Assembly: GCA_963807845.1 (NCBI GenBank)
Contig: CAWEDS010000001.1
Coordinates: 32,368-96,367, forward strand
DNA length: 64,000 nt
Direction: 5' to 3'
Origin: an uncultured Gammaproteobacteria bacterium
GTDB lineage: Bacteria > Pseudomonadota > Gammaproteobacteria > Steroidobacterales > Woeseiaceae
A program made the position numbers and the translations under genes. Position 1 is the first letter of the stretch; every line of letters begins with the position of its first letter. The notes beneath the pieces are model-generated. The model searched no databases, was not told the origin of the DNA, and worked only from the letters and a program-made list of their open reading frames with translations. Shown here piece after piece: positions 13,033-63,350 of the stretch.

Positions 13033-14655
13033 TGTCGGACGACAGTCGCCATTTCGATGTGGCCGTTATCGGCGCCGGCATCAACGGCGCCGGCATCGCG
13101 AGGGACGCGGCATTGCGCGGCCTGCGCGTCATTGTTTTCGACAAGAACGATATGTGTACCGGCTGCTCCTGGATTTCCAGCCGGCTGATACACGGCGGCC
13201 TTCGCTACCTCGAGTACGGCGAGATTCCGCTGGTCTACGAGTCGCTGCACGAGCGGCGCTGCCTGCGACGTACTGCGAAACACCTCGTCAAGCCACTGCG
13301 TATCTGTATCCCTATCTTCAGGGGCGCACGGCGCGGGCCGCTGCTGATTCGGCTGGGGATGACCCTGTACGATGTGTTGTCGTTTCGGAAAAAGCTGCCG
13401 TCCCATGAAATGCTGAGCAGCACCGCGATGCAGCAACGGGCACCGGGTCTGCGGCAAGAGGGCTTGAGAGCGGCTGCCTGTTACTTCGATGCGCAGGTGG
13501 CCTTTGCCGAGCGCCTGGTCCTCGAAAACCTCCTGTCCGCGCGAGCAGCCGGTGCCGAGATTCGGACGCATTGCGAAGTGACCGCCATCAAGATGCAAGA
13601 CGGCGAAGTGACTGGCGTGGTTTACGTGGACGAGGATGGCGCGACGACGCGGGAAGTATCGGTCGACACCGTCGTCAACGCAGCCGGTCCCTGGGTAGAC
13701 CGGGTGTTGCAGACTGCGCCGGTTCCGGCGAAACGCCTTATCGGCGGGACCAAGGGCAGTCATATCGTTGTCGGTATCTTCGATGGCGCGCCAGAGGACG
13801 CGTTTTACGTGGAGGCGGCCGCGGACGGCAGGCCGTTTTTCATTATTCCCTGGCACGGCCAGTTCCTGATCGGTACCACCGACATTCGTTACGAGGATGA
13901 TCTCGACACGATTCGGGCGAGCGACGCAGAGGTCGACTACCTGCTGGATGAAACGAATCGGGTATTTCCGTCGGCGAAGCTCAGCCGGGCGGACGTCCAC
14001 TACGCCTACGCCGGCGTTCGGCCGCTGCCGTTCCAGGAAGACGGGCCGGAGTCGGCTATTACCCGGCGCCACATCATCAAGGTCAACAAAAAGGTCGCTC
14101 GCGGCCTGATCTCTATCGTGGGCGGCAAACTGACGACGTATCGCAATCTCGCCGAGCAAACGGTCGATCGCATCGAAAAAATGCGCCGCTTAAGGCTCCT
14201 CGATTGCCGCACGCGCGACACATTGCTGCCGGGCGCCGCCGACCTGGCGCGTGCCGAGGAACGACTTCTGGAACTGCCGCAACTGGCGCGGCCGGGCGTC
14301 GAACGGATGCTCAGTATCTACGGTGGCCGTGCAACGGATCTGGTCGAGTCCTGCAGGGCCGATGAAGCGCTCTTTGGCGACCCTCGATGCGGCGGGCACC
14401 GTGTTACGCGGGGAAGTGCTGTTTGCGATACGCGAGGAGTTCGCAAGGTCACTCGCCGACATTGTGTATCGCCGCATGATGATTGGCCTGGATGCCGATC
14501 AGGGCAGGCCGCTGTATGCGGCGATCGCCGACATCGCGGCTCCCGAGTTCGGCTGGACAGAGGCAGAAAAAGCGCGCGAGCTCCAGCAGTTGGTGAGCTA
14601 CAGCGATTCGCTGCGGGTTTCCCCTGGCGGGTCGTCGCCGAAGCTCGGCCGGTAG
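13032..14655 (+). pseudogene. glpD: FAD-dependent glycerol-3-phosphate dehydrogenase, one frame break near 14380
   Basis: N-terminal FAD fold DVAVIGAGINGAGIARDAALRG and SSRLIHGGLRYLE. The C-terminal part continues in the frame of ORF 14251..14655 (VLRGEVLFAIREEFARSLADIVYRRMMIG). Confidence 0.75.
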
Positions 14656-16757
14656 CGCAGTTCAAGAAATAATTCGCGGCCCCGGCCGGGCAGGTATCGA
14701 TACTGTCCGAATGCGTAGTCGGCACGATCCGCCACCGCGTCGTCGAGCAGATTGTTTACGCGCGCCGTAACGCTCAGTCGCGAAGACAGGTCGATACGTC
14801 CGCGCAGGTTCAGCAGCGTATGGCCCGGATAGCGAAAACGGTTTTCGGCATCCAGGTAGTAGTCTCCGATCGACGTCCACTGCAGGGCGAACGCGGCCGT
14901 GTCGCCGGGCTCAAACCTGAGCTCGGCGCTGCCCAGCCAGCGCGGCGCGCTGTCCACATCATTGCCCGAAATAAACGCTTCCCCGCGTGCCGCGATCGTA
15001 TCGAAGTCGTAGCTGTGGCGCGCGAAACTGCCGTCGAGTTCAAGACGGAACGCGTCGGTCAGGTGAACATCGACCATGAGTTCGAGGCCGCGATGGCGGC
15101 TCTTGGCAGCGCTGACATTAAAGCCATCGGCATCGCGAAAAATACTGTCGCGTTTTTGCATCGCGAACGCGGCGGCCTCGCCCGACCAGCGAGGAAAATC
15201 CCAGCGTAATCCCAGTTCGAGGCTGTCGATGCTTTCGGAGTCGAGGTCGGCAACCTGCTGGCCGCTTTGCAGGCGGTACAGTTCTGTCGCCTGCGGTGCG
15301 CGAAAGCCGCGAGCAAGCGCGCCGAAAAACGCGACTTCGGGCTGCATCCGGAAGCTGAACGAAAACTTGGGCGCGATATTGGTGAAGGTGTCGCTGCGGC
15401 TTGCGGGCCTTGTGTAAAGGCAGCCGCCGAAGCCGCAGGCTGTGCCATCGTCGCGCGTATTACCGACCAGCATATTATTCGTGTAGTCGTAACGGACGTA
15501 TTCCAGCCGCAGGCCGGCGCCGAGCGTGAGGCGTTCACTCATAGCGAAATCGGCCTGCAGGTACGGTGCCAGGCCGATGCTTTGCACATCGAAGTCATAG
15601 TGTTTGCCCACCGGCCGCGTTTCGTTAAGAAACGCCGAACCCTCGGTTTCAGCGTCCTGCGTTTCCTCGAGAAATACATCGCTCCACTCGATGTCGACAC
15701 CCGTGACGAGCTGCCTTCTTTCCGTGCCGAACAGAAAGGCGGTGACCGCGCCAGCGCTGACGTGACCGTTTTCCTCGAGTGGCTGCCCCGGCAGGAAATG
15801 TTGCAGGAAGCGCATGTCGGAATGCCGCAGGTAGGGACGTATGTCGATGTCCACAGGGGTATCGCCGATCGTCGCGCTTGTTTTCAGTATGCCGTACAGC
15901 CGCTGGCTGGATGCCTTTCGAAACGCTTCCGGATTGAGATTGACGCGGTTCTGCGCGGGATCCTTGTAGGCGTCCTCGCCGAAGATGAACCCTGCGGTTT
16001 CCTGGTCGAGGTCGGTCGCGCTGAAGGCGGTGGTTAACTCCGCATTCCGGACATCCCAGTCCGCAGCGAGCTGCAGTTTTGCCTGCCGGTAACCCGATTC
16101 GTCCCGAAACCCGCCATCGTCAGCGTACAAAAAAGAGCCATAGATCGGTGCGACCGCGTCGCCCGAGAGGAAGGTGCGAAAGCGCATGAAGTCGTTCGAG
16201 CCGGTCTCGATCGACACGGTATTGTCCGGCCGCGCACCGCTGGCCGGCGTCAAGACGTTCACGATGCCGTGTATCGCATTGGAGCCGTACAGCGCACTGC
16301 CGGGGCCGCGAATAACCTCGACGCTGCTCGCCCATTCCGTCTGCATTTCGAACATCTGGTTCACATTGCAGAAGCCGGCCGGGCGAATCGCGATGCCGTC
16401 CTCGAGAAACAGGAAGTCACCGCAGGACCCGGGGCCGGTCAGCACGGGAGAGCGTATCGCGGTGAGGTGTTCCTGGCCGCTATTGCGGCTGAGCCACACG
16501 CCCGCAACGCGCGTCATCAACTCGTGGATGTGTTGATGACCAACCGACTCGATCGCGGCGGACCCGAGGATCGCGATATTGCCGGCGTGCTGCAGGCGCG
16601 GCTCGGCGCGTCGCCGGCTGGTAACAACGAGTTCCTCGATGGCGGTATCCACCTCGGGTCGAGGCGCTGGCTCGGCCTGCAGGGTCGCGCCTGGCGCCAT
16701 GCCGATAATCGCCAGCAGCAAGCCGGTCGTCATCCCTGACTGTCTTTCGGTCATCAA
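14598..16757 (-). CDS. TonB-dependent receptor
   Basis: Intact 719-aa ORF with a signal peptide, plug motifs (ELVVTSRR, VEVIRGPGSALYGSNAIHGIVNV) and a barrel ending ...FLELRYR followed by a ~19-aa tail that overlaps the glpD 3' end. Confidence 0.85.
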   Translation of the reverse strand: MMTERQSGMTTGLLLAIIGMAPGATLQAEPAPRPEVDTAIEELVVTSRRRAEPRLQHAGNIAILGSAAIESVGHQHIHELMTRVAGVWLSRNSGQEHLTAIRSPVLTGPGSCGDFLFLEDGIAIRPAGFCNVNQMFEMQTEWASSVEVIRGPGSALYGSNAIHGIVNVLTPASGARPDNTVSIETGSNDFMRFRTFLSGDAVAPIYGSFLYADDGGFRDESGYRQAKLQLAADWDVRNAELTTAFSATDLDQETAGFIFGEDAYKDPAQNRVNLNPEAFRKASSQRLYGILKTSATIGDTPVDIDIRPYLRHSDMRFLQHFLPGQPLEENGHVSAGAVTAFLFGTERRQLVTGVDIEWSDVFLEETQDAETEGSAFLNETRPVGKHYDFDVQSIGLAPYLQADFAMSERLTLGAGLRLEYVRYDYTNNMLVGNTRDDGTACGFGGCLYTRPASRSDTFTNIAPKFSFSFRMQPEVAFFGALARGFRAPQATELYRLQSGQQVADLDSESIDSLELGLRWDFPRWSGEAAAFAMQKRDSIFRDADGFNVSAAKSRHRGLELMVDVHLTDAFRLELDGSFARHSYDFDTIAARGEAFISGNDVDSAPRWLGSAELRFEPGDTAAFALQWTSIGDYYLDAENRFRYPGHTLLNLRGRIDLSSRLSVTARVNNLLDDAVADRADYAFGQYRYLPGRGRELFLELRYRPSFGDDPPGETRSESL

Positions 16758-31557: not shown

Positions 31558-32535
31558 TTGGCCAAGACTAGCGGCGCTTTGCTGCTTTTGCCGGTTTCCT
31601 CGGTGCTGGCGGACTGGGTGGGCGATACGCGACCGCTGATGGGAACCGAGGTCAGCGTCTACTTGTGGAGCGACGATGCGGCGAACGGGCGGGGCGGTCG
31701 ACGCGGTATTCGCCGAGGCGATGCGTATCGACCGCCTCATGAGCACCTACAAGGAAGACAGCGAGATCTCGAAATCAACCGCCTCGCCGCCACGCAAGCG
31801 GTGGTCGCGGGCGAGGAGTTGTTCAGCCTGATCCAGCGCGCGCTGGATATTTCCGTGCTGACGCTGGGCGCGTTCGATATCACCTTCGACAGCGTCGGCC
31901 AGCATTACGATTTTCGTTCCCGGCAACGTCCCGATGCGGCGACCGTTGAGGCCGAGCGTGACAAGATCGATTATCGCTACGTGCGGCTCGACGCTGCCAC
32001 CGAGAGCGTGACGTTTCTGAAAGAAGGTGTGCGCATCAATCTCGGCGGCATCGCCAAAGGCTATGTCGTCGAGCGCGGCGTCAATATTCTGCGTCATCAC
32101 GGTGTGGAACACGCCATCGTGACGGCGGGCGGCGACTCACGACTGCTCGGTGATCGACGCGGTCGTCCATGGATGGTCGGCATTCGCGACCCGCGCGTCG
32201 ACGGCGAGGTCGCGATCTCTGTGCCGCTGGCAGACGAGGCCATTTCGACATCGGGCGACTACGAGCGGTTTTTTGACGAAGACGGCGTTCGCTACCATCA
32301 CATCATCCGGCCCGCTACCGGCGAGCCGGCGGGCGGCATCCGGAGTGCCACCGTTTTTGGACCCGATGCCGTCATCACCGACGCGCTGTCGACGTCGGTT
32401 TTCGTCATGGGCGTTGACCGCGGACTGACGCTGATCGCGACGCTGCCGGATTACGAGAGCATCGTCATCGACGCGGACGGCCGCGTCTATTACTCCGACG
32501 GGCTGCAGCAGCCCGGGCCCCCGGATGGCGAATAA
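31558..32535 (+). pseudogene. apbE: FAD:protein FMN transferase (ApbE family); compensated frame changes ~31690-31760
   Basis: LMGTEVSVYLW, INLGGIAKGY, AISTSGDYERFF and HHIIRPATGEP. TTG start at 31558 with a signal-like N-terminus. Confidence 0.8.
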
Positions 32536-32852
32536 ACCTCTCCGAAGCGGGTCTGTCGCCGAAAGGCGACGTTTTTTCGCTTTAAATTCAGCCTCATACA
32601 CCTATCATGGGCCCCGGGCAAGGGCGCGAAAACACCTTGGGCCAAACCTCGATTTAACGTAATCTGTGACGCTCGCTCGTGCGTGCCGCTGGCCGCGCGG
32701 CCTGCGCGCTCACTATGTTTTCGGATTCGGGGCATTTGTGACCATTATCACGGCCCGGAACGGCGTCGGCTGTCACCATTCGGGATTGGATCGTGGCGGC
32801 ACCGGCGCGGTTCAACGGACGGAACCGGGACAAGACAAAAAGGAATGGATAG

Positions 32853-33350
32853 ATGCATGTCAGAATCTTGTTTTTCGGTCTTGTCGCAAGCCTCGTGGCC
32901 ATGAGCAGTCTCGCGTCGTCCGGCATGGAAGGGCAGCCGGCGCCGGATTTTGCATTGCCAAGTGCACTCGGGGAGAACCTGAGGCTTTCGGAGTACCGCG
33001 GCGATGTCGTCATGATCAATTTCTGGGCAACCTGGTGCGGTCCGTGTCGCCAGGAGATGCCGTTGCTCGACGAGCTGTACACGCGTTACCAGCGTGTCGG
33101 ATTCAGTCTCCTCGGCGTCAATATCGACGACGACTCAACTCGTGCGGTGGCAATGATCAGGGATCTGGGCGTCAACTTTCCGGTCCTGTTCGATGCGGAC
33201 AAGGAGGTCAGCAAATTGTACGCCGTCGAGGCCATGCCGGTAACGGTTCTGGTCGATCGAGAGGGAACGGTCCGATATGTGCACAACGGTTACAAGCCCG
33301 GGTACGAAGAGAAATACCTGGATCAGATTCGCGCGTTGCTAAGAGAGTAG
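32853..33350 (+). CDS. TlpA-like periplasmic thiol:disulfide oxidoreductase (redoxin)
   Basis: Signal peptide and the thioredoxin motif INFWATWCGPCRQEMP. The ORF is intact. Confidence 0.85.
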   Translation: MHVRILFFGLVASLVAMSSLASSGMEGQPAPDFALPSALGENLRLSEYRGDVVMINFWATWCGPCRQEMPLLDELYTRYQRVGFSLLGVNIDDDSTRAVAMIRDLGVNFPVLFDADKEVSKLYAVEAMPVTVLVDREGTVRYVHNGYKPGYEEKYLDQIRALLRE

Positions 33351-33360
33351 AGCAGTGACA

Positions 33361-33976
33361 ATGACACTCGAGGGGGTCTCGCTGCCGAGACGGCTGCTGG
33401 CCGGTTTTCTGGCGACGCTCGTATTCAGCACCACGGTGCTTGCAGAGCAGGCAGCGCCGCTCGAGACGGACCGCGGCACTGCTCGAGGCGATCGCGGCAG
33501 AAGCGGCTGAGGCGAAATCGCGAGGCGAGTTCAGCAACCTCGACAAGGACGTGCAGGCCCTGAAGAAGGAAGTGCTCGACCTGAATCGCGATCTGTTCCT
33601 GCTGGAGGAGGAGCTGCTGTTCCCGGCGAATTCGCAGGTCGCGTTCTTCGTCTCGATGGATGTCGGCGAGTATTTCGAGCTCGACTCGGTCAACATCAAG
33701 ATCGACGGCAAGGACGTTGCAAACTATCTGTACACCGCGCGCGAGGCGGACGCGCTGCTGCGCGGCGGCGTTCATCGTGTGCACATGGCCAACCTGAAGA
33801 CCGGCAAGCACGAACTCATCGCAATTTTTACCGGCAAGGGACCGCAGGTTCGCGACTATCGTCGCGGCGCGACGGTGACCTTCGACAAGGGCATCGGTTC
33901 GAAGTACCTCGAGCTGGAAATTACCGACCGCGTCAGGAAGCAGCAGCCGGAATTTGCCATCAAGGAATGGGAGTGA
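33361..33976 (+). pseudogene. secreted protein (coiled coil plus beta-rich C-terminal domain), family not recognised; one frame break ~33468
   Basis: Signal peptide MTLEGVSLPRRLLAGFLATLVFSTTVLAEQ in one frame, the remainder in ORF 33440..33976. It starts 10 nt after the redoxin stop. Confidence 0.6.
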
Positions 33977-33979
33977 TCT

Positions 33980-35865
33980 TTGCCAACGGATTGCTCACCA
34001 CGTAAGCGCCTCGGTCTGCTGTTGGCGCTGCTCGCGCTGACCGCAATCGTTAACGCAGCAGACGACACGCGTACCCCGATCGTTGTGCGAGGACCCGCAT
34101 TACGGCGAGGTCCTTTTCTATTTTTACCAGGAAGACTATTTTCCGGCCATCGTCCGCGTGCTGGCGGCACAGAGAACAGGGGCAGCTCGACAATCACAGG
34201 GACGAGGCGGAGCTGCTGCTTGGCGGCATGTATCTGTCCTACGGTCAGCATCTCGAGGCGGCCGAAATATTCGAGCGCCTGCTTGCGAACAATGCCGCGC
34301 CCGGATATTCGCGACCGCACCTGGTTTTTCCTTGCCAAGATCTGGTACCAGCGCGGCTACCTCGACCGGTCACAGCAGGCGCTCGCCAACATCGAGCGCG
34401 AACTGCCGGAGCATCTTGCAGCGCGAGGCGCTGATGCTCGAGGCGCAGATCCTGATCGACGCCGGCGAATACGATGCGGCGATCGCCCGGCTGCAAAACT
34501 GGCAGGGAAAGACGGAGTGGGCGAGTTACGCGAAGTTCAATCTCGGCGTGGCGCTGGTGCGGCTAGGTCGAGTCGACGAAGCCGCGCGCCTGCTGGGTGA
34601 TCTCGGCACAATGGACCCGTTCAACGACGAAATGATGTCCCTGCGCGACAAGGCGAACCTCGCACTCGGCTACGCGCTGCTGCAGGACGGCCAGGCGCGG
34701 GCGGCGAAGACGTCGTTGCAGCGAGTGCGACTGGAGGGGCCGTTTTCCAACAAGGCGCTGCTGGGCGTCGGCTGGGCCGATGCTGAAATGGACAATTACC
34801 GCCGGGCGCTGGTGCCGTGGATGGAACTTGCGCGGCCGCGACCTGCTGGACTCGGCGGTGCAGGAAGTCGATGCTCGCAATTCCTTACGCAATGGCCAAG
34901 CTCGATTCGATCAGCCAGGCCGCCGACCATTACCTGAACGCGATCGAGGCCTTTCACGAAGAGACCAATCGCCTCGATCGCACCATCCGGCACATTGAAT
35001 CGGGCGATTTTTTCGACGACTTTCTCGCAGACGATCCGCTGGACGGCACCGGCTGGTACTGGCGTCTCGAGGAGCTGCCGGAGGGCCCGGAAGCGCGCTA
35101 CCTGTTTCATTTGCTGGCAACGCACGAGTTCCAGGAAGGCCTGAAGAACTACCGCGACCTCAACTATCTGTACAACAACCTCAATGACTGGCAGCGCAAC
35201 ATCGACGTCTATGAGCAACATGCTCGAGACGCGCAAAGAGGCCTACGCGGCACGTCTGCCGCGCGTCGAGGACGCGCTTGCACGCGCGGATCCTGGATGA
35301 CATGGTCGATCGCAAGCTCGAGTTCGATTCGACGCTGAACAACATTGAACAGCAGCAATGACTGGCTGGCGCTCGCGACGCCGAACGGAGTTCGACATGT
35401 GGGGCGAAATTTCGGGACTGGAAGCGACGCCGGCGCTGCAGGCAGACATTCCGGAAGCGGCCGAGGCGCGTGACAGGATTCGCTTGTTGAAAGGCGTGCT
35501 GCAGTGGGATCTGGAGCGCGACTTCAAGGATCGCCTGTGGCGCATCCGGCGAGATCTCCGCCAGACCGGCGAGGCGCTGGTCGAGACGCAGCGGTCTCGA
35601 CGCCAGATCGACCAGACGCATGGAGCTGCAGCCGCAGCGCTTCGACGCGATCGGTCAGCGCGTTGACGGACTGGAACCGCGTATCGAAAGCACCAAGATG
35701 CGGCTCGAAGACGTCCTGGCGAGGCAGCGCGCGTTTCTGCAGTCGATCGCGGTTGGCGAGCTGCAGGCTCAGAAGGAGCGACTCAATATTTACACGGTGC
35801 AGGCACGTTTCGCGCTCGCCGCAATTTACGATATTGCCGCTAACTCGGACGGTGAGGCGCAATGA
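33980..35865 (+). pseudogene. ~630-codon secreted TPR plus coiled-coil protein, many frame changes
   Basis: Signal peptide ...RLGLLLALLALTAIVNAA. TPR-like DPHYGEVLFYFYQEDYFPAI, WFFLAKIWYQRGYLD and LMLEAQILIDAGEYDAAIARL, then a coiled coil. The pieces lie in ORFs 33980, 34083, 34228, 34817, 35358 and 35620. Confidence 0.6.
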
Positions 35866-38690
35866 GGCTGGCCCGCTACCTGCTGCTTGTCTCGCTCGGG
35901 CTCGCGCTGTCGACGCCTGCCGTCGCGGACAAGTTAAAGAAAAAGGACACGATCAAGAGCCTGGAAAGAAAGTCCGTCACGCTGCGGCCGGGAAATATCT
36001 TCCTCGATAGCTCGATCTCGCGCGCGACAATTATCGGCAGTTTCTCGATCTCGTGTCGGACGATCCGGAGCTGCGTGCGGAAGCGATGCGACGTCTCGGT
36101 GATCTGGAACTGGAGGCGAACGAAGCGGGCGAGCTCGTGGAGAACATCGAATCACTCGATGCCGCGCGCTACGACAGCGCCGTGAATCTGTACCAGCAGC
36201 TGCTCGAAGCGTATCCCGACTATCGACGCAACGACACGGTGCTCTACCAGCTGGCTCGCGCGTACGAAGTTGGCGGGCGTACTGACGATGCGCTCCAAGT
36301 ACTCGATGAGCTCGTCGCCAAATTTCCGGACACCGCGCTCATTGACGAGGTGCAGTTCCGCCGCGGTGAAATGCTGTTCTTGCGCAAGCGCTACAACGAT
36401 GCCGAGGTGGCTTATCAGGCCGTCAGAAAATACGGTGACGCATCGCGCTTTTATGAGCAGTCCCTGTACAAGTTGGGATGGTCGCAGTTCAAGCTGGCCT
36501 GGCATGAGGACAGCCTCGACCCGTTCTTCGAACTGCTGGATCGCAAGATCGAAGGCGTCGAGATTGGCGAAGGTGACAAGAGGCTTGCCAGCCTGAAGCG
36601 CGCGGAACGCGAGCTGGTCGAAGATACGTTTCGCGTGCTGAGTATCAGTTTCTCCTACATGGACGGGCCGCAGAGCATCGCAGAGTTCCTCAAAGAGCGT
36701 CAGGACCCGGCCTACGGCCACGTTATTTACCGCAATCTCGGCGACCTGTACCTCGAGAAAGAGCGTTTTGTCGATGCGGCCAAAACCTACGAGGCATTTG
36801 TCGAGCAGGATCCGTTTCATCCCGAAGGCGCCGCTGCTGCAGGTGGAGGTCATCGAGGCCTACAAGCAGGGCGGATTCCCCGAGTCTGGTGCTGGACGGC
36901 AAGCGGGCTTTCGTCGAGCGCTACGGTATGGACGGCGAGTTCTGGGTGCGCAATCCGATGGCGGGCAATCGAGGCGGTCGCCTCCTACCTCAAGTCCAAT
37001 CTCACTGATCTCGCGCAGTATTACCACGCCGAGGCGCAGCGCGGCGGCAACAAGAGCGACTACCAGCAGGCTGCAAACTGGTACCGGAAGTACCTCGCCT
37101 ATTTCCCCGGCGAGCCCGACAGCGCCAACACCAACTTCCTGCTGGCCGAAACGCTGTACGAGATCGAGGACTATCGCGGCCGCGACGGCCGAGTACGAGC
37201 GCAGCGCCTACGGCTACGGTCCGCATGACAAGGCGGCCGAGGCCGGCTACGCCGCGCTGTTCGTCGTATCGCGAACACGAGCAATTGCTGGCTGGCCGAG
37301 CCGAGAAACGCGTGGCACCAGCAGTACCTGGACAGTGGCCTGCGGTTTGCCGATACGTTTCCCGAGCATCCGGCAGTCCGGCGCGGTGCTGACGACGGTC
37401 GCCGAAGACCTGTTCGCACAAAACCAGTTCGACCTGGCGATCGCGGTCGGCCAGACCGTCGTGGCCAAGCAGCCGCCGGTCGAGTGCGACGCTCGCGCGT
37501 ACTGCCTGGACCGTGATCGCGCATTCGCAGTTCGACCTCGGGAACTTCCGCCAGGCCGAGGACGCCTATTACAGCCTGCGGAATTTCCTGCCTGACGCTG
37601 ACCCGCAGGCCGCCCGGGACATCGACGATCGCATTGCTTCCTCTATTTACAAGCAGGGTGAGAAGGCGCGCGAGCGCCGGGGACCTGGAAACCGCGGTCG
37701 TGCACTTTACGCGCCTCGGTCAGGTGGTCCCGAATTCCGACATTCGCGCAACGGCCGAATACGATGCGGCGGCCGCGCTGATCAATTTGCAGGCCTGGGA
37801 TCGTGCATCCGGCATGCTCGAACATTTTCGCAGCGACTACCCGGACAGCGAGTTTGCCGACGACGTCACGCGAAAAACTCGCCGTGACCTATCTCGAATC
37901 GGGCCAGGCGGAGCAGGCGGCGGCCGAGTTCGAGCGAATTGCCACAGCGGAATCGACGTGCTGACGACGTGCGTCGCGAGGCGCTGTGGAAAGCCGTCGG
38001 ATCTTTACAAACAGACCGGCGGCGCTCGCCAGCGAGCAGCGTGTTCTGGACAACATCATTGCGCGCTACCCGAGCCCGATCGCGGAGTCGGTCGAAGCGC
38101 GCTTTCGCCTGCTCGAAATCGCGCGGCAAAGCGGTAACGATCAGGAGCGCGTTGCGCGCTTGCAGGACCTGGTGCGGGTGGACGCGACAGCCGGCGCCGA
38201 GCGAACGGATCGCACGCGTTTTCTCGCAGCCGTTGCGTCGCTCGAACTCGCCGATCCGGTCCGCGAACGTTTCGCCGTTGTGAAACTGACCCAGCCGCTG
38301 GCGAGCAGCCTCAAGCTCAAGAAGTCGTTGATGGAAGAGGTCATTTCGGCCTATACCAATGCGGCCGACTATGGTGTCGCGGAGGTGACGACGGCCGCGA
38401 CGTTTCGACTCGGCGAAGTCTACGAGCACTTCAGCTCCGACCTGATGGCATCCGATCGACCGGCGGACCTCGATGCCGATGCGCTGGAGCAGTACGAGTT
38501 GCTGCTCGAGGAACAGACGTTTCCTTTCGAGGAAAAGGCGATCGAACTCTACAAAGCGAACACGGACCGCGCGGCCGACGGCGTTTACGATGAATGGGTG
38601 CAAAAAAGTTTTGCACGACTGGCCGGTCTGATACCGGCCCGGTACGCGAAACAGGAGCGCAGCGAAGATGTTGTCACGACGCTTTACTAG
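35862..38690 (+). pseudogene. ~940-codon secreted TPR protein, many frame changes
   Basis: Signal peptide MRLARYLLLVSLGLALSTPAVA. TPR-like repeats (NLYQQLLEAYPDYRRNDTVLYQLARAYEVGG, FRRGEMLFLRKRYNDAEVAY ...) lie across ORFs 36053, 36768, 37513, 37634 and 37986. The start overlaps the previous stop (ATGA). Confidence 0.6.
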
Positions 38691-39330
38691 CGTCGGGCGT
38701 ATCGCCGGCGGCCTGGTGGCATTGCTGCTACTGGGTGCCTGCGCGGGGCTTGCTGCCCGAGAAGGCACCGGATTCGGCCCGGGAACGCGCGGACGCCGGC
38801 CAGCGGGGTCGAGGCCGCGAGCAGGGATGCCGGGGTTCCGCCACGGGTCCTGACACTGTACGAGCAGGCCGGCGGCCCAATGGCGGCCGGCGATGTCCTC
38901 GACGCCGAGTTGCGTTTCAAGGAGTTCCTGCTGCAGTACCCGGAGTATCCGGGTGCCTACGTCAACCTCGCCATCATCCATGCGAACAACGACAACGACG
39001 AGCGGCCGCGATCAGGCGGCTTGACGCCGCACTGGCGCTCGAATCCGGACCATCCGGCCGCGCTGAATCAGCACGGCATGCTGTTTCGCAGAAACGGCAA
39101 ATTTATCGAGGCAGAGGCCGCATATATGAAGGCCGTCACAGTTGACCCCGACTATGCCTTGGCACACTACAACCTGGGCGTACTGAATGAGCTCTACCTG
39201 CAAGCGCCTCGATGTCGCACTGCAGCATTTCGAGGATTATCAGGCACTTGTCGGTGAAGACAAGCAGGTCGCGAAGTGGATCAACGACCTCCGGCGTCGC
39301 GTCGCGGCGGCCGAGAACACGGCAAGTTGA
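38668..39330 (+). pseudogene. TPR lipoprotein, at least two frame changes
   Basis: Lipobox LLLGAC in MLSRRFTSVGRIAGGLVALLLLGACAG. TPRs EFLLQYPEYPGAYVNLAIIH and KAVTVDPDYALAHYNLGVL. The end ...VAAAENTAS-stop is at 39330. Confidence 0.6.
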
Positions 39331-39343
39331 CGGATTGACGGAC

Positions 39344-39787
39344 ATGACCATGCCAAGAAATGCCTTTATCGCCCCGCACTACTGCTGGCACTGCTGCTGG
39401 CTGTCGGCTGCCGGCATCGCCCAGGAGGCGGCCGAGGACGACCTGCTGCCGGCGGTCGATACGTCGGCCGTGGCGCCAGGAGCCTCGAAGACGCTGCCGC
39501 CGCCGGCGTCGGCCGACGCGGCCGCCGTTCGCCGAGGTAACGCGCGCGCACGACGGGCAGCCGAGGTCATGGACACGATCGAGCTTGGACGTACCGAGAT
39601 TACCGGTAACCAGGAATTACCCAAGGTCTTGTATATCGTGCCCTGGAAAAAATCGGACCCAGGCGACCTGATGGGCAAGCCGGTCAACAGCCTGCTCGAC
39701 GAGGTGCTGGCGCCGATCGACAGGGAAGAATTCATACGACAGGTCGATTACTACGGCGACCTTTATGGCGAAGAGGTACAGGAGTAA
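39344..39787 (+). pseudogene. small acidic secreted protein, family not recognised; signal peptide frame-shifted
   Basis: MTMPRNAF... with ALLLALLLAVG visible in another frame. The mature part is in ORF 39212..39787 (ELPKVLYIVPWKKSDPGDL ... EEFIRQVDYYGDLYGEEVQE). Confidence 0.5.
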
Positions 39788-39865
39788 GCGCGGTCCAGCC
39801 GCAATTGCCCTGCGAAAGCGGCGTAGCCGCGAAACAGAAATTCTGTTTTTTAGAGGAGCAGACAG

Positions 39866-40507
39866 ATGAGCACTATTGTGCGGTTTTTTCAGGACGGCGG
39901 TGCATTCATGTACCCGATCCTGTTTGTATTTGCGATAGGCGCGGCGATCGCTATCGAGCGCTGGACTTACCTGACGGTGTCGGGCGTCAGCAATCGCGCC
40001 TTGTGGAAGAAGATCGTGCCGTTTCTGAAGGCCGGCAACTTCGAGAAGGCGGTCGAGCAAACGTCCAAGTCCAAAGCGGCGATCGGCTCGATCCTGACCT
40101 ACGGGCTTTACCGCATCAAGACGGCGCGTCGTCGCGACGACATCGAAAAAGCGATGGAAGAGAGCATGATGGAGGTGCTGCCGCGGCTTGAGAAGCGCAC
40201 GCATTACATTGCGACGCTGGCCAATGTTGCGACGCTGCTGGGTCTGCTTGGCACGATTATCGGCCTGATCAACGCGTTTACGGCCGTCTCGAACGCCAAT
40301 CCCGCGGACAAGGCCGATATGCTGTCGGCCAGTATCTCGGTCGCGATGAACACGACGGCGTTCGGCCTGATGGCCGCGATTCCGTTGTTGCTCGTACACG
40401 CGTTGCTGCAGACCAAAACCAACGGACTGGTCGACAGCCTCGAGATGGCGATCGTCAAGTTTCTGAACGCGGTAACCGAACGACAGCCGCAGACCGCTGG
40501 AGCGTAA
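39866..40507 (+). CDS. exbB: MotA/TolQ/ExbB-family proton channel protein
   Basis: Intact 213-aa ORF with GGAFMYPILFVFAIGAAIAIER and ATLANVATLLGLLGTIIGLINAF. Confidence 0.85.
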   Translation: MSTIVRFFQDGGAFMYPILFVFAIGAAIAIERWTYLTVSGVSNRALWKKIVPFLKAGNFEKAVEQTSKSKAAIGSILTYGLYRIKTARRRDDIEKAMEESMMEVLPRLEKRTHYIATLANVATLLGLLGTIIGLINAFTAVSNANPADKADMLSASISVAMNTTAFGLMAAIPLLLVHALLQTKTNGLVDSLEMAIVKFLNAVTERQPQTAGA

Positions 40508-40510
40508 GCC

Positions 40511-41023
40511 ATGATGTCTCGCCGCCGAGGCAGTCGTCATTACCGCAATGATACGGCCGAACTCAACATTACGGCATTCATGAACCTGATGGTGATCCTG
40601 GTTCCGTTCCTGCTGATTACCGCGGTGTTCTCGCGACTGGCGATTCTCGAGTTGAATCTGCCAGGCTCCTCTACCGAGCCCGTGGACCCGCAGGAACAGG
40701 TATTTCAACTGGAAGTCATCGTTCGCGAGGAGAAGATCGAAGTCGGCGATCGCAATCAGGGCCTGCTCGGCGTCTACCCGAACGGCGAAGACGGCTACGA
40801 CTACGACGCGCTAAAGGCCAAGCTGTCTGAACTGAAGGAAAGATACCCGGCGAAATCGGATGCCTCGATCCTGCTCGAGCAGGACATCCCTTACGACACG
40901 CTGGTGCAGGTAATGGACGCGGTGCGGGTGGCCGAAACGATCGACGACGAATCGGTCGTGCGCTCCGACCTGTTCCCGGATATTTCGATCGGCGATGCGC
41001 CGGTTGCGGACGAGGGGGCGTAG
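40511..41023 (+). CDS. exbD: ExbD/TolR-family biopolymer transport protein
   Basis: Intact 170-aa ORF. ELNITAFMNLMVILVPFLL TM segment followed by a periplasmic domain. Confidence 0.85.
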   Translation: MMSRRRGSRHYRNDTAELNITAFMNLMVILVPFLLITAVFSRLAILELNLPGSSTEPVDPQEQVFQLEVIVREEKIEVGDRNQGLLGVYPNGEDGYDYDALKAKLSELKERYPAKSDASILLEQDIPYDTLVQVMDAVRVAETIDDESVVRSDLFPDISIGDAPVADEGA

Positions 41024-41054
41024 GCAATGGCCACGTCAGCGCCGCGTCAAACGC

Positions 41055-41557
41055 ATGGAGAAACACCACAAGCGCCACAAAGGCACCGGTGCCCTGAACC
41101 TGGTATCGCTGATGGACATTTTTACGATCCTGGTGTTCTTCCTGCTGGTTAATTCGTCCGACGTGCAGACGCTGCCGAATGCAAAGGACCTGCAGCTACC
41201 GCAATCGATCGCCGAGGAGAAGGCCAAGGAGACCGTGGTCATCCTGATCGGTGAGACCGACATCATCGTGCAGGGCACGCCGGTGGCCAAGGTGGCCGAC
41301 GTCATGGCAACCAAGGGCAACAACATTCCGGCGTTGCGCGCGGCGCTTGCTGGCGCAGAACGATCGCGTGCTGCGGCGCGAGGCAGAAGACGATATTGCG
41401 GGACGGGAGGTCACGATCATGGGTGACAAGGACATACCGTACCGTTTGCTGAAGAAGGTCATGGCGACCTGCACCGAATCGGACTTACGGAAAGATTTCG
41501 CTGGCGGTGCTGCAGAAGAGTTCAGAGAAGCTGGACGATATTCAGGCAGCTCGCTAG
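41055..41557 (+). pseudogene. exbD: second ExbD/TolR-family protein, two frame changes
   Basis: MEKHHKRHKGTGALNLVSLMDIFTILVFFLLV... It continues in ORF 41251..41574 (REVTIMGDKDIPYRLLKKVM), and the last part GKISLAVLQKSS... is in a third frame ending at TAG 41555-41557. Confidence 0.7.
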
Positions 41558-41588
41558 GCACAGGGACGACGTAACAGGAGTCGCGGCA

Positions 41589-42556
41589 TTGGATTTACCG
41601 TTTTACAGAAATTACGAGCTGCCGTGGACGTCAGGCGGCGATCAGGAGCGAAAGTTCCGGCGCCTGCTCGGGATCGTAATCCTGGTCTGTGCGCTGCTCG
41701 GCGTCATCTGGCCGTTTATTCCGGTGCCGGAGCCCGGATCCTTACGAGGTGACGGAGATTCCGCCGCGCATCGCGCAAGCTGCTGCTGGAAGAAAAGCCG
41801 CTGCCGCCGCCACCGCCGCCGCCGAAGGAGGAAGAGCCGGAGCCTCGAACGAGGACGACCCGGAGCCCGAACAGGTTGTCGAGGCAGAACCCGAGCCCGA
41901 GCCGAGCTGACGAACCGGAACCCGTTGCCGGAGCCCGATCGCGAAGCGATCGCGCGCGAGCAGGCGCAGGCAGCCTTGATGCCGTTTGCCGAAGATCTGG
42001 CCGACCTGGTCGACAACAGATCTGCTTGACGAACATGGCAGACGATCGCCCGTTGACGGCGTCGGTCGGTGAGGCCGAGCGCAATGAACGCTCGATGATT
42101 ACATCGAAGGTCGGCGCCGCGTCCGGCGGCATCAACACCGCGACCATGAGCCGCAATACCGGCGGCACCGGCATCGCCGGACGTTCGACCACCAAGGTGG
42201 CGAGTCCGGTCGCGGGCATCGGCCAGGCCGGCAGCAGCGCCACGCGCTCCGGATCGAGCGGCAAGGCGTCGCGTTCGCGCGAGGAGATCGAACTGGTGTT
42301 CGACAAGAACAAGGGCGCGATTTTCGCGCTCTACAATCGAGCGCTGCGCATGGATCCGTCGCTCGAGGGCAAGCTGGTTCTCCGGCTGACGATCGCACCG
42401 AGTGGTGCGGTCACGATGTGCGAGGTCGTCTCCAGCGAACTCGGCGATGCGGAGCTGGAGCGCAAACTGGTGCAGCGCATCAAGCTGTTCCGCTTCGAAG
42501 CGAAAGACGTCGAGGCGATTACGACAACCAAGCCGATCGACTTCTTCCCCGCCTGA
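41589..42556 (+). pseudogene. TonB-like energy transducer with an AgmX/PglI-type C-terminal domain, several frame changes
   Basis: N-terminal TM LLGIVILVCALLGVIWPF and a Pro/Glu-rich linker PLPPPPPPPKEEEPEP. C-terminus in ORF 41876..42556: IFALYNRALRMDPSLEGKLVLRLTIAPSGAVTMCEVV ... KPIDFFPA. Confidence 0.65.
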
Positions 42557-59199: not shown

Positions 59200-60150
59200 T
59201 TACGGGGCAAGAAACGGGAATTCCTCGTTCGCGACACGCAACAGGGCGGCGATGACCTCGGTCCGGTCGGGTTCTACGTGCGGGCCGTCTGTAAAACGCA
59301 GGCGTTTGGGTTCCCCCGCAAGTTCGTGCAGCCGTGTCACCTCTGCGATGGGAGTCCGCTCATCATCGCGTGCGCCGACGATGAGTACCGGGCGCGGCGC
59401 GATCCTGGCAACGTTCGCGCCGGTATCCATTGCCGGCCCGTAGGCGAGCCAGTAAAGAATCGTCGCCACGGGATCGTGCAGGATCCGCGCGTCCAGCCGG
59501 CGTGCGACCTGTACCTTCAGCCATTGGCGATTGTCGGCAGCGCCGTGCACCAGCATCAGGCCGGTGATGCGTTGGTCGCGCGCGGCGGCCGACGCGGCAA
59601 ACGGCACGCCGAGGCTTGCACCGACGAGCACAATTCTCTGTTGGTCGACCCACGGCTGCTCATAGCAGCCAGTCGAGAACGAGTGACAGGGCGGGCGTCG
59701 TATCCAACATCGCTTTCCTCGCCACAGGCAAGGTCTTTAGCACGGCGACAAACCCTTTGACCTTGTCGGGCCCGGCGTAGGGGTAGTCAATACTGACGAT
59801 CGCGCGATCCTTGGTACGAGCAAAAAGATCGACCGCATCGCCGCCCGTCCGGTGTCCGCCCAGTATCAATAACAGTGGCAGCCGCACGCCCTCTGTTTCC
59901 GGGCGTAGCACACGAAGGTCAACCTGCAGTCCGGAGTCAGATTTCAGGCGCAGCGACGCGGAAATCTGCTGGTCTCCCGCAGCGCGTTCCGTTGCAATCA
60001 CGGTCTCGACATGGCCCTGGCGCGTGCCAAACCACTCCTCTCGGGGCCGATGCGCGTCCCACCGCAGCCAGGCAAGGAAAAGCACAACGGTAGCAAGGGT
60101 CAATAGCGTCGGATAAAAGACGAGCAGGCGAAGCGTGGTGCTATGTTTCA
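59200..60150 (-). pseudogene. alpha/beta hydrolase (dienelactone-hydrolase-like) with N-terminal TM anchor, one frame break ~59650
   Basis: GTG start 60150 (VKHSTTLRLLVFYPTLLTLATVVLFLAWL). PLLLILGGHRTGG, then in the next frame RIVLVGASLGVPFA (GxSxG) and VGARDDERTP. Confidence 0.65.
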
Positions 60151-60428
60151 CCAGTGGCCTCGCGACGCACCGATTCCTGCGAGAAGATTTTGAACGGTCA
60201 TCATGGTTGCGCCAGATCCTATCATCGGCTGGCGGCAAGGGCGCACCTTCCGTCGTAGCGGAGGGAGGCTGTCTTTCCATTGCGGGTGTTGTCGGCGGCC
60301 GGTCGCGTGGGGCAAGATCTCGCAATAGGGAAATCGCAAAAAAGAGTTGTTGGGAACGCAGTCTTTTGCCTCGCGATCTTGTCGTGTTTCTTTCAGACGA
60401 ATCTCTGCGTGAAGGGCTCGCCACAAGC

Positions 60429-60680
60429 GTGCGGGATGGTATCAATTTGATAAACCAAACTAGCTATCAGCAATCCATTGATTATGATTGCCTGGCGAAT
60501 ATATCGGTTGATAGCAATATCGTCCAAACACTAAACTCCGGAGAAGTTGATAATGTTCTCTTGCTCATGGAAGAGCCGGGGCAACTGGCTATTGCCGACG
60601 GTGCGGTTGCGTACTCAGCCTACCTGCAGATATTAAGGCTTATGCGATCGGGTTTCGATGATCTCGGCAATCCCAACTAG
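60429..60680 (+). CDS. hypothetical small protein (weak call)
   Basis: Only the low-GC 3' third of ORF 60135..60680 looks protein-like (INLINQTSYQQSIDYDCLANISVD...LLLMEEPGQLAIADGAV). GTG 60429 or TTG 60446 could be the start. No family recognised. Confidence 0.2.
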   Translation: MRDGINLINQTSYQQSIDYDCLANISVDSNIVQTLNSGEVDNVLLLMEEPGQLAIADGAVAYSAYLQILRLMRSGFDDLGNPN

Positions 60681-60701
60681 CGACGTGCTGGCGACGGCGG
60701 C

Positions 60702-60790
60702 AATCGGGGTCAGACCGAGGTTTTCAACCACTGACGCGAGTTTCCTGTGGCATGTTGTGCGAGTTCCGAAACTTCGGTCTGACCCCGATT
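60702..60790. repeat. 19-bp inverted repeat (18/19) flanking a 51-nt spacer, upstream of the DUF4019-like gene
   Basis: aatcggggtcagaccgagg (60702-60720) pairs with cttcggtctgaccccgatt (60772-60790). There is a nested small hairpin ccgaaacttcgg. Confidence 0.6.
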
Positions 60791-60830
60791 TTCCACATAT
60801 CAGCCTGTCGCAATTTGGAGAAGTTACGTT

Positions 60831-61247
60831 ATGAAACGTTTGCTCAGTACCGCTTTGATTTTCGCCTTGATCGCGTTTTCGGCCCAAGCAAGCGAGCCCG
60901 AAGCGATCGAAGAGGCACAAGTAGAAACCGTGGCATGGCTCGCTCTGACGGATACCGGGCAGTACGAATCGAGCTGGGAGTCAGCATCGGTGCTATTCAA
61001 GGCTGCTATCCCCAAAGAGGACTGGGAGAAGTCCTTGAGCGCTGTGCGAACGCCAATCGGCGCGCTCGGAACGCGCGAGGTGGCCAGGTCAATGTTCAGC
61101 AAAACGTTGCCTGGTGCACCTGATGGAGAGTACGTCGTGTTCCAGTTCAATTCAGTGTTCGAGCACAAAGCTAAAGCTCTTGAGACGGTGACGGCTATGA
61201 AGGACCCGGATGGAATATGGCGAGTGGCCGGCTACTTCATCAAGTGA
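60831..61247 (+). CDS. secreted DUF4019-like protein
   Basis: Signal peptide MKRLLSTALIFALIAFSAQA. WLALTDTGQYESSWESAS...LPGAPDGEYVVFQF...GIWRVAGYFIK matches my memory of DUF4019. Confidence 0.6.
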   Translation: MKRLLSTALIFALIAFSAQASEPEAIEEAQVETVAWLALTDTGQYESSWESASVLFKAAIPKEDWEKSLSAVRTPIGALGTREVARSMFSKTLPGAPDGEYVVFQFNSVFEHKAKALETVTAMKDPDGIWRVAGYFIK

Positions 61248-61306
61248 GTCAGGCAGCGTCCTCACCGGATGCCGGAACGCTTGCTTGGTGCTAAAAGCGG
61301 AAGTTC

Positions 61307-61360
61307 GAATCTAGGGATAAGGAATGACCGCTGCTGAGTGCAACCGCTAGCAGTCCGTCG
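61307..61360 (+). repeat. intergenic repeat unit 1 (extended form)
   Basis: gaatctagggataaggaATGACCGCTGCTGAgtgcaaccgctaGCaGtCcgTcg. It shares the 5' extension with unit 3. Confidence 0.55.
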
Positions 61361-61375
61361 AGTGATAAACTAACG

Positions 61376-61406
61376 GATGACGGCGACTCGCCCAAAGCGG
61401 GTGTAC
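61376..61406 (+). repeat. intergenic repeat unit 2
   Basis: gATGACGGCgaCTcGcCCaaaGCgGgtgTac. Confidence 0.5.
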
Positions 61407-61427
61407 TCAAAAAAAAGGAACTCGTGC

Positions 61428-62054
61428 ATGGCTACGGACACATGGTTGCTGTACGTCGGCACAGTGTTGATATTTATGAGTACGCCGGGCCCTAGCCACC
61501 TGTTGATGCTCTCCGTAAGCCTGTCGAACGGATTTCATCGGGCGCTTGCGACTGCCGCCGGTGACTTGTCCGCAAACGCAATCCAGATACTGCTGGCGGG
61601 GCTGGGACTGGCCGCCGTAGTTACCGCCTCGCGCTACGGTTTTGCCGTCATCAAGTGGGCAGGTGTTTCGTACCTGGTTTGGGTTGGTATACGACAGATC
61701 GTGGCTTCATTCCGAGGAAGAAGTGCCTCCTCGGAGGTGCCTCTCATTACGCTTCGACAACTATGGTTCCGTGGCTTTGTGACGTCCGCCGCAAACCCAA
61801 AGGCGGTTGTATTTTTCGCCGCGCTGTTTCCCCAGTTTCTGGACCCACAGTACTCACTCGTCCCGCAAATCGCGGTTTTGGGCGTAACTTACATCGCGAT
61901 TGACGGATGTTTCCTTGCCTCGTACGGCAAAGGTGCCAGCTGGATAGCGACAAAATTACGTAGTCAAAATAAAGTCTGGGTCGACCGAGCGGCAGGAGTA
62001 TGCCTGATTACCGCAGCTCTGCTTCTCGGTCTAAGGACGAACGAACATAAATGA
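61428..62054 (+). CDS. LysE/RhtB-family amino-acid efflux translocator
   Basis: Uses the internal Met MATDTWLLYVGTVLIFMSTPGPSHLLML. NPKAVVFFAALFPQF. About 6 TM segments. Confidence 0.75.
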   Translation: MATDTWLLYVGTVLIFMSTPGPSHLLMLSVSLSNGFHRALATAAGDLSANAIQILLAGLGLAAVVTASRYGFAVIKWAGVSYLVWVGIRQIVASFRGRSASSEVPLITLRQLWFRGFVTSAANPKAVVFFAALFPQFLDPQYSLVPQIAVLGVTYIAIDGCFLASYGKGASWIATKLRSQNKVWVDRAAGVCLITAALLLGLRTNEHK

Positions 62055-62088
62055 AGGGCTGCTTCACCTCGCATAGCAGCCGCTCGAA

Positions 62089-62132
62089 GAATCTACGGTA
62101 AGATGACGGCTGCTGACCCGTTGCAGACATCG
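62089..62132 (+). repeat. intergenic repeat unit 3 (extended form)
   Basis: gaatctacggtaagATGACGGCTGCTGAcCCgttGCaGACATcg. Confidence 0.6.
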
Positions 62133-62279
62133 CGTGAGTCATTATGTAAGAATATGTACATCCCCGAATTGACGCGATTCTCCTATCGGCGCATACAATT
62201 TAGTTGCATCCGACAATGGCGAATCTAGCCAAAGCTAGTGGCTGAATGACTTCTTTGGCAGATGCCGAGGAGAGTCAAC

Positions 62280-63128: not shown

Positions 63129-63162
63129 TCAGCCTTATCCTTCAAATCAGAGTTGACCCCGA

Positions 63163-63187
63163 CCCCGCCCTCGTGGCGGGGTTTTCT
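63163..63187 (+). terminator. rho-independent terminator after the pentapeptide-repeat gene
   Basis: ccccgcc / ggcgggg stem with a 5-nt loop, followed by ttttctt. Confidence 0.7.
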
Positions 63188-63195
63188 TATGCGAC

Positions 63196-63225: not shown

Positions 63226-63253
63226 TTTGTTTGCTGAAATTTAGCGCGGGACT

Positions 63254-63347: not shown

Positions 63348-63350
63348 CTG

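Follow-up and report, generated by a model that had tools for sequence, protein, structure and literature searches.

A probable stand-alone Agl/Glt-type core complex operon in an uncultured member of the Woeseiaceae

In 2011, Luciano et al. sorted 14 Agl-Glt genes into two groups, one of which is specific to Myxococcales and Bdellovibrionales (PMC3169522). The second group forms a single 'core complex' cluster in several Gammaproteobacteria, one betaproteobacterium and Geobacter; it comprises seven genes and one additional gene, had no known function and was described as the ancestral part of the Myxococcus gliding motor (PMC3169522). The core complex is widespread and is the presumed ancestor of both the gliding and the spore-coat machines of Myxococcus. 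Papers of 2013 and 2020, by the same groups, again treated it as a seven-protein system of unknown function and suggested a basal transport or secretion machine. No functional assignment in Gammaproteobacteria was found in the later literature searched, which likewise reports no role of the machine in any non-gliding bacterium, and a study of TonB in Teredinibacter did not cover the TonB-like gene of the core cluster. Described here is a nine-gene operon that is likely to encode such a core complex. It occupies positions 33361-42556 on the forward strand of a 64,000-nucleotide (nt) stretch of DNA, called the window below, from an uncultured member of Woeseiaceae, a family of marine-sediment bacteria in the gammaproteobacterial order Woeseiales.

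The comparison with the published clusters begins with gene order and gene size. Table S3 of the 2011 study covers clusters from Cellvibrio, Marinobacter, Saccharophagus, Shewanella, Teredinibacter and Hahella (PMC3169522). In these, GltC-like proteins of 550-692 amino acids (aa), GltD-like proteins of 933-1016 aa and GltE-like proteins of 162-263 aa are followed by one unlisted gene and then by AglR (217-272 aa), AglQ (169-188 aa), AglS (162-185 aa) and a GltG-like protein (321-334 aa) (PMC3169522). Genes 2-9 of the Woeseiaceae operon follow the same order, with products of 624, 938, 220, 150, 213, 169, 167 and 321 aa. The 150-aa product is that of gene 5, which falls exactly where Table S3 skips a locus tag, after the GltE-like gene and before the AglR-like one, and supplies the one additional gene of the cluster. 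Three tetratricopeptide repeat (TPR) proteins of GltC-, GltD- and GltE-like order and size are encoded upstream; one TolQ/ExbB-like protein (PF01618) precedes two TolR/ExbD-like proteins (PF02472 in both), and the last gene encodes a GltG-type transducer, as judged from its NF033768 score and the layout of its AlphaFold2 (AF2) model. The best explanation, and in our judgement a likely one, is that this Woeseiaceae locus encodes a stand-alone core complex of the Agl/Glt type. Orthology to the 2011 clusters is suggested by the shared architecture together with one Cellvibrionales representative. A first-pass annotation of the window had already proposed a core-type Agl-Glt machine, and the proposal is supported by the match in order and sizes, by the NF033768 score above its cut-off and by the lack of a linked receptor. 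The same annotation had named the small GltF among the Myxococcus partners of the motor and had left out GltC; both points have to be corrected, since GltF is restricted to Myxococcales and Bdellovibrionales and GltC belongs to the published core. As to names, its 'GltG/PglI' is a single protein, formerly called PglI and now GltG; likewise, AgmX was the earlier name for GltJ.

The arrangement recurs in many genomes. At the 50% identity level, a search with the TonB-like protein (gene 9) retrieved 3603 representative clusters with E <= 1e-3, of which 486 reach E <= 1e-30. The repaired protein has hundreds of relatives at 73-91% identity, the named sources of which are Woeseiaceae or unclassified Gammaproteobacteria. 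When species-representative genomes were scanned with the motif LYNRALRx[DN]P, a relative was found in at least 592 genomes, and 80 loci were kept, all of them from Woeseiaceae. Genes 1-9 were present and collinear in every kept locus whose upstream sequence extends over 8.8 kb or more (57/57). Eight further loci were added by a profile search and contig look-up; the TonB-like proteins of these loci share 37-59% identity with P0002, the reference from Woeseiaceae. Among the eight are the cultured Aurantivibrio infirmus (Cellvibrionales; L083) and a Thiohalobacteraceae metagenome-assembled genome (MAG). The nine-gene order was kept in seven of these eight distant loci, and the remaining one (L084), a contig that ends upstream, holds the last seven genes. 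Such an arrangement is far from chance. Ten annotated operons of distinct lineages were examined, with the Plug and TonB_dep_Rec domains looked for, and none of them contains a TonB-dependent receptor, siderophore or ABC uptake gene. The absence that the first-pass annotation had noted for this operon thus holds across all ten, and the combination that it had set against its own proposal, a canonical TonB C-terminal domain with consistent receptor linkage, did not appear, the Pfam TonB_C score also lying below its cut-off. In one lineage (L090), a btuB-like receptor is encoded 4 kb downstream of the operon, within a cobalamin cluster and on the opposite strand.

In the window, the nine same-strand genes are tightly packed over 33361-42556 according to their open reading frame (ORF) coordinates (Table 1), which reproduce both the gene order of the first-pass annotation and every junction that it cited. 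The stop codon TAG of a redoxin gene (33348-33350) lies 10 nt before the ATG of gene 1 at 33361; genes 2 and 3 overlap by ATGA at 35862-35865, genes 3 and 4 by 23 nt (38668-38690), and a gap of 3 nt separates the end of ExbB (40507) from the start of the first ExbD (40511). The quoted peptides LLLGAC, ELPKVLYIVPWKK, PLPPPPPPPKEEEPEP and the C-terminal IFALYNRALRMDPSLEG... were all located in the window translations. The gene sizes agree with those of an intact orthologous operon (L001) on a 38.6-kb contig of the Woeseiaceae MAG GCA_013003035.1, which carries the relative P0002; there, gene 1 encodes 160 aa and genes 2-9 encode products of the sizes listed above. ApbE and redoxin genes precede the operon of L001, and a second genome (L002) has the same layout.

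Table 1. Coordinates of the nine operon genes and of the adjoining redoxin gene in the window
Feature	Coordinates	Strand	Description
TlpA-like thiol-disulfide redoxin	32853..33350	+	Pfam AhpC-TSA and Redoxin, E ~1e-30; outside the nine-gene set
Gene 1	33361..33976	+	Secreted; signal peptide, 47-residue helix, 8-stranded beta-sandwich; one frameshift near 33472
Gene 2 (GltC position)	33980..35865	+	~624 aa; signal peptide, N-terminal TPRs, helical coiled-coil-like C-terminal half; many frameshifts
Gene 3 (GltD position)	35862..38690	+	TPR protein, ~938 aa; signal peptide; many frameshifts
Gene 4 (GltE position)	38668..39330	+	TPR lipoprotein, ~220 aa; lipobox LLGAC; frameshifts
Gene 5	39335..39787	+	Small secreted protein; signal peptide, variable acidic linker, conserved ~55-aa core (ITGNQELPKVLYIVPW...DREEF.RQ..YY)
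Gene 6 (AglR position)	39866..40507	+	ExbB/TolQ/MotA-type proton channel, 213 aa, intact; PF01618 103 bits
Gene 7 (AglQ position)	40511..41023	+	ExbD/TolR paralogue 1, 170 aa, intact; PF02472 61.6 bits
Gene 8 (AglS position)	41055..41557	+	ExbD/TolR paralogue 2, ~167 aa; frameshifts ~41345 and ~41487; PF02472 64.7 bits (intact orthologue)
Gene 9 (GltG position)	41589..42556	+	TonB-like transducer, ~321 aa; many frameshifts before 42020

The TonB-like protein encoded by gene 9 has an LPW motif in its N-terminal part, followed by a single transmembrane helix, a Pro-rich linker and two conserved stretches, first a helix and then a segment of predicted disorder, and it ends in a C-terminal domain. 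The AgmX/PglI C-terminal model NF033768 scored 66.8 bits (cut-off 40), TIGR01352 (TonB C-terminal) 35.5 bits (cut-off 27.1) and Pfam TonB_C 23.9 bits, just under its cut-off of 24.6; the GltJ model reached 20-35 bits over the C-terminal part only, and a sequence search of the PDB gave nothing significant. From an alignment of 132 sequences, AF2 predicts the transmembrane helix at residues 17-43, the Pro-rich linker, a helix at 118-149 and a C-terminal domain with a per-residue model confidence (pLDDT) above 95. Residues 150-229 have low pLDDT values yet a conserved sequence (ERS.ITS..SGGI.T..LSR.TGG), as would be expected of a segment that folds when it meets its partner. Using Foldseek, the C-terminal domain was matched to HasB, Helicobacter pylori TonB, FusB, and Pseudomonas aeruginosa and Escherichia coli TonB in receptor complexes, with a probability of ~1 and a TM-score of ~0.6, and TolA domain III ranked lower. 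The earlier description of this domain as AgmX/PglI type rather than classical TonB is therefore right at the family level, where NF033768 supports it, but not at the level of the predicted fold, which is that of an ordinary TonB C-terminal domain. The AgmX/PglI-type domain is a subtype of TonB_C. Among the relatives of gene 9, several proteins of 450-480 aa (P0134, P0135, P0160 and others) carry a coiled-coil-like cytoplasmic extension of ~150 aa at the N-terminus, and the N-terminal ~350 aa of P0196 (668 aa) are repeated beta-rich sequence; these extensions are reminiscent of the FHA extension of GltG.

Two of the three motor genes, ExbB and the first ExbD, are intact in this assembly. For ExbB, the best NCBIfam match was TolQ (66 bits, cut-off 221) and the next was ExbB (45 bits, cut-off 206), both far below the equivalog cut-offs, and the two ExbD proteins reached at most 31 bits on the curated ExbD equivalog models (cut-offs 123-216). 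The two ExbD paralogues differ in a fixed way. The first has Asn (FMNLM) at the usual position of the transmembrane Asp in 76/76 orthologues, distant ones included; this position we take to be that of Asp25 in E. coli ExbD. The second has kept the transmembrane Asp (LMDIF) in 82/82 orthologues. With Asn in one paralogue and Asp in the other, the stand-alone stator probably combines one active and one inactive plug subunit. No mention of this fixed Asn/Asp split was found in the published accounts of the core complex that were searched. By its position in Table S3, the first ExbD corresponds to AglQ, of which Asp28 is needed for proton conductance in Myxococcus (2020 paper). A defence-system reading of the locus was dropped, as PADLOC gave ExbB only a weak ZorA-type MotA match.

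Of the three TPR proteins, the first was assessed through the intact orthologue of gene 2 (L001:2423-4297), which gave weak TPR matches over residues 45-275. Its position and size fit the GltC column ('MXAN_2541') of Table S3, as those of gene 3 fit the MXAN_4870 (GltD) column and those of gene 4 the MXAN_4869 column. Gene 3 matches TPR_6, TPR_19 and TPR_16, and it also scored 106.8 bits over several stretches with the YbgF/CpoB model TIGR02795 and 70.5 bits with BamD/YfiO. Neither gene 2 nor gene 3 matched any Glt model in NCBIfam, even at E <= 10.

The small secreted protein of gene 5 has no family match in Pfam or NCBIfam. Its core was kept in 7/7 aligned lineages, in which the N-terminal part varies in length and the whole proteins measure 89-192 aa. 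In Myxococcus, GltF is a small, mostly disordered protein encoded directly after gltE (PMC11761067). An AlphaFold model of the Agl-Glt machinery places a beta-strand of GltF parallel to the sheet of the TonB domain of GltG and the C-terminal helix of GltF in a crevice of GltC (PMC11761067). Gene 5 shares with GltF the position after a GltE-type gene and the strand-then-helix layout, and by this analogy it is probably the functional counterpart of GltF.

Gene 1 gave no match in sequence searches of Pfam, NCBIfam or the PDB. Its AF2 model (mean pLDDT 81.6) consists of a 47-residue helix followed by an 8-stranded beta-sandwich, for which Foldseek found no significant fold match; the best E was 5e-3, and the hits were generic beta-sandwiches only. 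All 8000 candidates scored in a protein-database search were at E <= 1e-5. Across orders, gene 1 retains 51-65% identity and 54 invariant columns. It thereby surpasses the three TPR proteins and the TonB-like protein in conservation, for which identity to the reference from Woeseiaceae is ~28-39% in the loci farthest removed. Gene 1 would thus appear to encode a strongly conserved ninth subunit that is presumably periplasmic. The literature counts seven genes plus one extra; therefore, either gene 1 or gene 5 goes unmentioned in the published accounts found, and in those searched there was no mention of gene 1 as a conserved ninth subunit or of the likeness between gene 5 and GltF. Several homologues of gene 1 (P0421, P0474, P0478 and P0434) are named 'AraC family transcriptional regulator' or 'HPt domain-containing protein' in public records. 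These names are almost certainly wrong, because the proteins are secreted and have the helix-plus-beta-sandwich form.

The operon is frame-broken in this assembly. The window and L001 are collinear over 11 kb at 85.7% nucleotide identity, and the alignment revealed ~45 indels of a length that is not a multiple of three, almost all of which are single-base insertions outside homopolymers. Genes 1, 2, 3, 4, 8 and 9 are visibly frame-broken, as the first-pass annotation had cautioned for six of the nine, ExbB and the first ExbD are clean, and gene 5 has an open frame with locally scrambled stretches. A codon-usage Viterbi pass and three-frame reading likewise indicated many frame changes across the operon. 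One reading of this pattern is that the operon is a decaying, non-functional remnant in which the breaks are genuine pseudogenising mutations. At least six of nine genes are indeed broken, and the insertions are unevenly spread, with ~20 in 34-38 kb, a higher density than in most of the window, ~8 in 41.7-42.05 kb, and none relative to the intact orthologue in 39866-41023 (ExbB and the first ExbD) or in the redoxin gene. However, a prevalence of single-base insertions is unlike neutral decay, as are in-frame stretches that, in the better-preserved genes, remain 88-96% identical in protein sequence to the L001 orthologues, and related genomes all have intact operons. Pseudogenisation was rejected on these three grounds and is extremely unlikely. 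Frameshift-like events are also scattered, at lower density, through other genes of the window, which points to assembly noise rather than decay of the operon. The sequence pattern indicates that the breaks are almost certainly sequencing or assembly errors, and it was concluded that the operon is in all probability functional in the organism.

Several observations weigh against the assignment to the core complex. The GltG model gave gene 9 only 42 bits against a cut-off of 650, and over the C-terminal part alone, and the GltE model NF033758 gave gene 4 33 bits against a cut-off of 225, which did not exceed the scores of the PilW and Tgl models, made for unrelated TPR lipoproteins. The naming of the three TPR genes as GltC, GltD and GltE is drawn from position, size and the 2011 phylogeny. 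The Asn of the first ExbD, set against the essential Asp28 of AglQ, means that the two stators may not work identically. As far as can be read from its sequence, the operon itself has no recognised outer-membrane component, and every subunit contact invoked below would be taken over from a distant system, for which it was modelled computationally. Since the modelled fold of gene 9 is a normal TonB fold, the protein might also energise receptors encoded elsewhere, and two TonB-dependent receptor genes do lie elsewhere in the window. On these last grounds, the operon could be taken for an ordinary accessory TonB-ExbB-ExbD system that powers unlinked receptors with the TPR proteins as accessories, comparable with the Vibrio TonB2 system and its TtpB, TtpC and TtpD. 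The C-terminal domain passes TIGR01352, and some of the TonB domains that its predicted fold matches were solved in receptor complexes. However, the AgmX/PglI model outscores the TonB models, no receptor, siderophore or ABC uptake gene belongs to any of the ten operons (the btuB-like gene of L090 being on the other strand), and the ExbB and ExbD proteins are far under the equivalog cut-offs (45 vs 206 bits and at most 31 vs 123-216 bits). In Vibrio-type TonB2 systems, TtpB (DUF3450) and TtpC (a long MotA/ExbB protein) are encoded upstream of exbB-exbD-tonB (PMC10734418). The Woeseiaceae operon has no TtpC-type long ExbB and no DUF3450 protein, its single MotA_ExbB protein being of 213 aa, and its two ExbD paralogues with the fixed Asn/Asp split are foreign to Ton systems. 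An accessory Ton system is thus quite improbable.

The other alternative is a second Tol-Pal-like system that serves outer-membrane integrity, constriction or lipid homeostasis. The best curated match of ExbB is TolQ, the 938-aa protein is built of CpoB/YbgF-like and BamD-like TPR units, and TolA gives a weak match to the N-terminal part of gene 9. The Agl motor, too, is considered Tol-like. In one lineage (L086, 11077-18737), the operon is followed directly, on the same strand, by ruvCAB-ybgC-tolQRAB-pal-cpoB. The same neighbourhood also speaks against replacement: a complete canonical Tol-Pal cluster stands beside the operon in L086, and the machine is therefore additional to Tol-Pal and not a substitute for it. 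Moreover, the operon has no TolB or Pal homologue (no TolB_N, PD40 or OmpA-family protein), and its C-terminal domain is closer to TonB than to TolA domain III. A second Tol-Pal system is accordingly judged improbable, with the reservation that this alternative concerns the output of the machine more than its identity and partly overlaps with the core complex assignment.

The neighbourhood of the operon recurs as well. The redoxin gene lies immediately upstream in 54/57 of the related loci, and ApbE is present in 55/57. The redoxin is probably co-transcribed with the nine genes; upstream of it are a hairpin that resembles a terminator (32554-32571) and a site that resembles a promoter (32581-32608). 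ApbE, DUF3570, a thioredoxin-like protein and DUF4266 make up an extracytosolic flavinylation module (PMC8238504). ApbE and the TlpA-like redoxin precede the operon in Woeseiaceae (31558-33350 in the window) and in L085, ApbE without redoxin does so in Aurantivibrio and L089, and in L087 the redoxin, DUF4266 and DUF3570 are joined to gene 1 with gaps of 2-5 nt. DUF3570 and DUF4266 were absent from the window and from every locus examined other than L087. The idea that ApbE flavinylates a subunit of the operon was tried and rejected, because no redox substrate was evident: the [ST]GA[ST] flavinylation motif occurs in none of the nine proteins (0/9), and their periplasmic parts are almost Cys-free. 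A functional link to the redox module is therefore only a lead. L087 has an extra gene of 208 aa after the TonB-like gene (10978-11604, same strand), the C-terminal part of which looks PDZ/GspC-like by eye.

The window as a whole holds no tRNA or Rfam RNA, and it gave no match to a plasmid collection. Its two TonB-dependent receptor genes, at ~2954-5915 (+) and 14598-16757 (-), both encode a TonB_dep_Rec beta-barrel, the second also a Plug domain; they lie 17-30 kb away from the operon, to which they are unlinked, and have unrelated metabolic genes as neighbours. The G+C content falls from ~0.62 to ~0.54 over the last 4 kb (60001-64000), where there is likewise no tRNA or Rfam RNA.

On the assignment to the core complex, a mechanism can be sketched. 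Its starting point is what was observed, namely which genes are present, how they are ordered and conserved, what types of domain they encode and that no receptor is linked to them; stoichiometry, contacts and output are borrowed from Tol, Ton and Agl-Glt. In the AlphaFold model of the Agl-Glt machinery, GltG wraps GltD, GltE is bound to GltD, GltC contacts GltD, and the motor is formed by AglR5QS-GltG (PMC11761067); GltF bridges the C-terminal domain of GltG and GltC (PMC11761067). An interaction between AglR and GltG was detected by two-hybrid assay (PMC3169522). By analogy, an ExbB-type pentameric proton channel in the inner membrane would surround one copy of each ExbD paralogue (5:1:1, like the modelled AglR5-AglQ-AglS), the second of which alone would carry the protonatable Asp. 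Proton flow would power this stator, which would act on the one helix by which the TonB-like protein crosses the inner membrane, and the Pro-rich linker of that protein would span the periplasm. Residues ~150-229 and the TonB-type C-terminal domain may dock on the GltD-position TPR protein, which in turn would bind the GltE-position lipoprotein and the GltC-position protein below the outer membrane. Gene 5 probably acts like GltF: its strand KVLYIVPW would pair with the TonB-domain sheet, its helix at the C-terminus would bind the GltC-like protein, and gene 1 would be a further periplasmic subunit. The machine would do mechanical work on a partner in the outer membrane that is encoded elsewhere. 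A mechanical action is favoured over nutrient import, since the operon is never linked to a receptor, and by analogy the most likely output would be the moving, exposing or releasing of an outer-membrane or surface component. All of this can be drawn together into one more ambitious reading, which we regard as rather unlikely in its entirety: a minimal force-transmission shaft of nine subunits with an obligately asymmetric stator, in which gene 1 is a universal extra subunit and gene 5 the equivalent of GltF, an adaptor of the 'Ton box in trans' type, and the redox-module neighbour hints at a redox-active outer-membrane partner or cargo rather than an adhesin or a nutrient receptor.

The locus adds a new host order to the gene cluster described in 2011, and the window itself adds no function. 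What comparison with the known systems does is to sharpen the focus on the fixed Asn/Asp stator pair, the two conserved small subunits, the consistent lack of a receptor and the recurring redox-module neighbour. With Ton and TonB2 systems, the operon has in common ExbB and ExbD family proteins and a C-terminal domain of TonB fold, and TonB2 also has a TPR protein, TtpD. It differs from them in that it comes without a linked receptor, TtpC or DUF3450 and instead with three TPR proteins, two family-less proteins and ExbDs that are split into Asn and Asp forms. With Tol-Pal, it shares a 5:2-type proton-driven stator (here by analogy), a transducer that crosses the membrane once and has a long linker in the periplasm, and TPR modules of the CpoB kind, whereas TolB and Pal are missing from the operon, the two TolR-like proteins are different from each other, and the C-terminal domain is of the TonB type.

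The likeness to the Agl-Glt and Agl-Nfs (spore-coat) machineries of Myxococcus goes further and includes a TolQ-like channel with two TolR-like proteins, a TonB-like transducer with an AgmX/PglI-type C-terminal domain, three periplasmic TPR proteins and a small secreted protein encoded after the GltE-type gene. However, the operon lacks the parts specific to Myxococcales, namely the outer-membrane barrels GltA, GltB and GltH as well as GltK, CglB, GltI and GltJ, and none of the gliding Group A genes (GltA, GltB, GltH, GltK, GltI, GltJ and GltF) was found in it or in its flanks. Gliding is not expected. In addition, the TonB-like protein here has no FHA domain, the genes form one operon instead of three clusters, and the first ExbD has Asn where AglQ has its essential Asp28. 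The closest relatives remain the published core clusters, for example Cellvibrio japonicus CJA_3319-3312, Marinobacter aquaeolei Maqu_1602-1595 and Shewanella frigidimarina Sfri_1230-1223. The gene order is the same, the sizes agree within a few per cent, one unlisted small gene follows the GltE-like gene, and there is no receptor. The Woeseiaceae operon differs from these clusters in its host order, Woeseiales, which was unsampled in 2011, and in a ninth gene, gene 1, which lies upstream of the GltC-like gene and is at least as conserved as the others.

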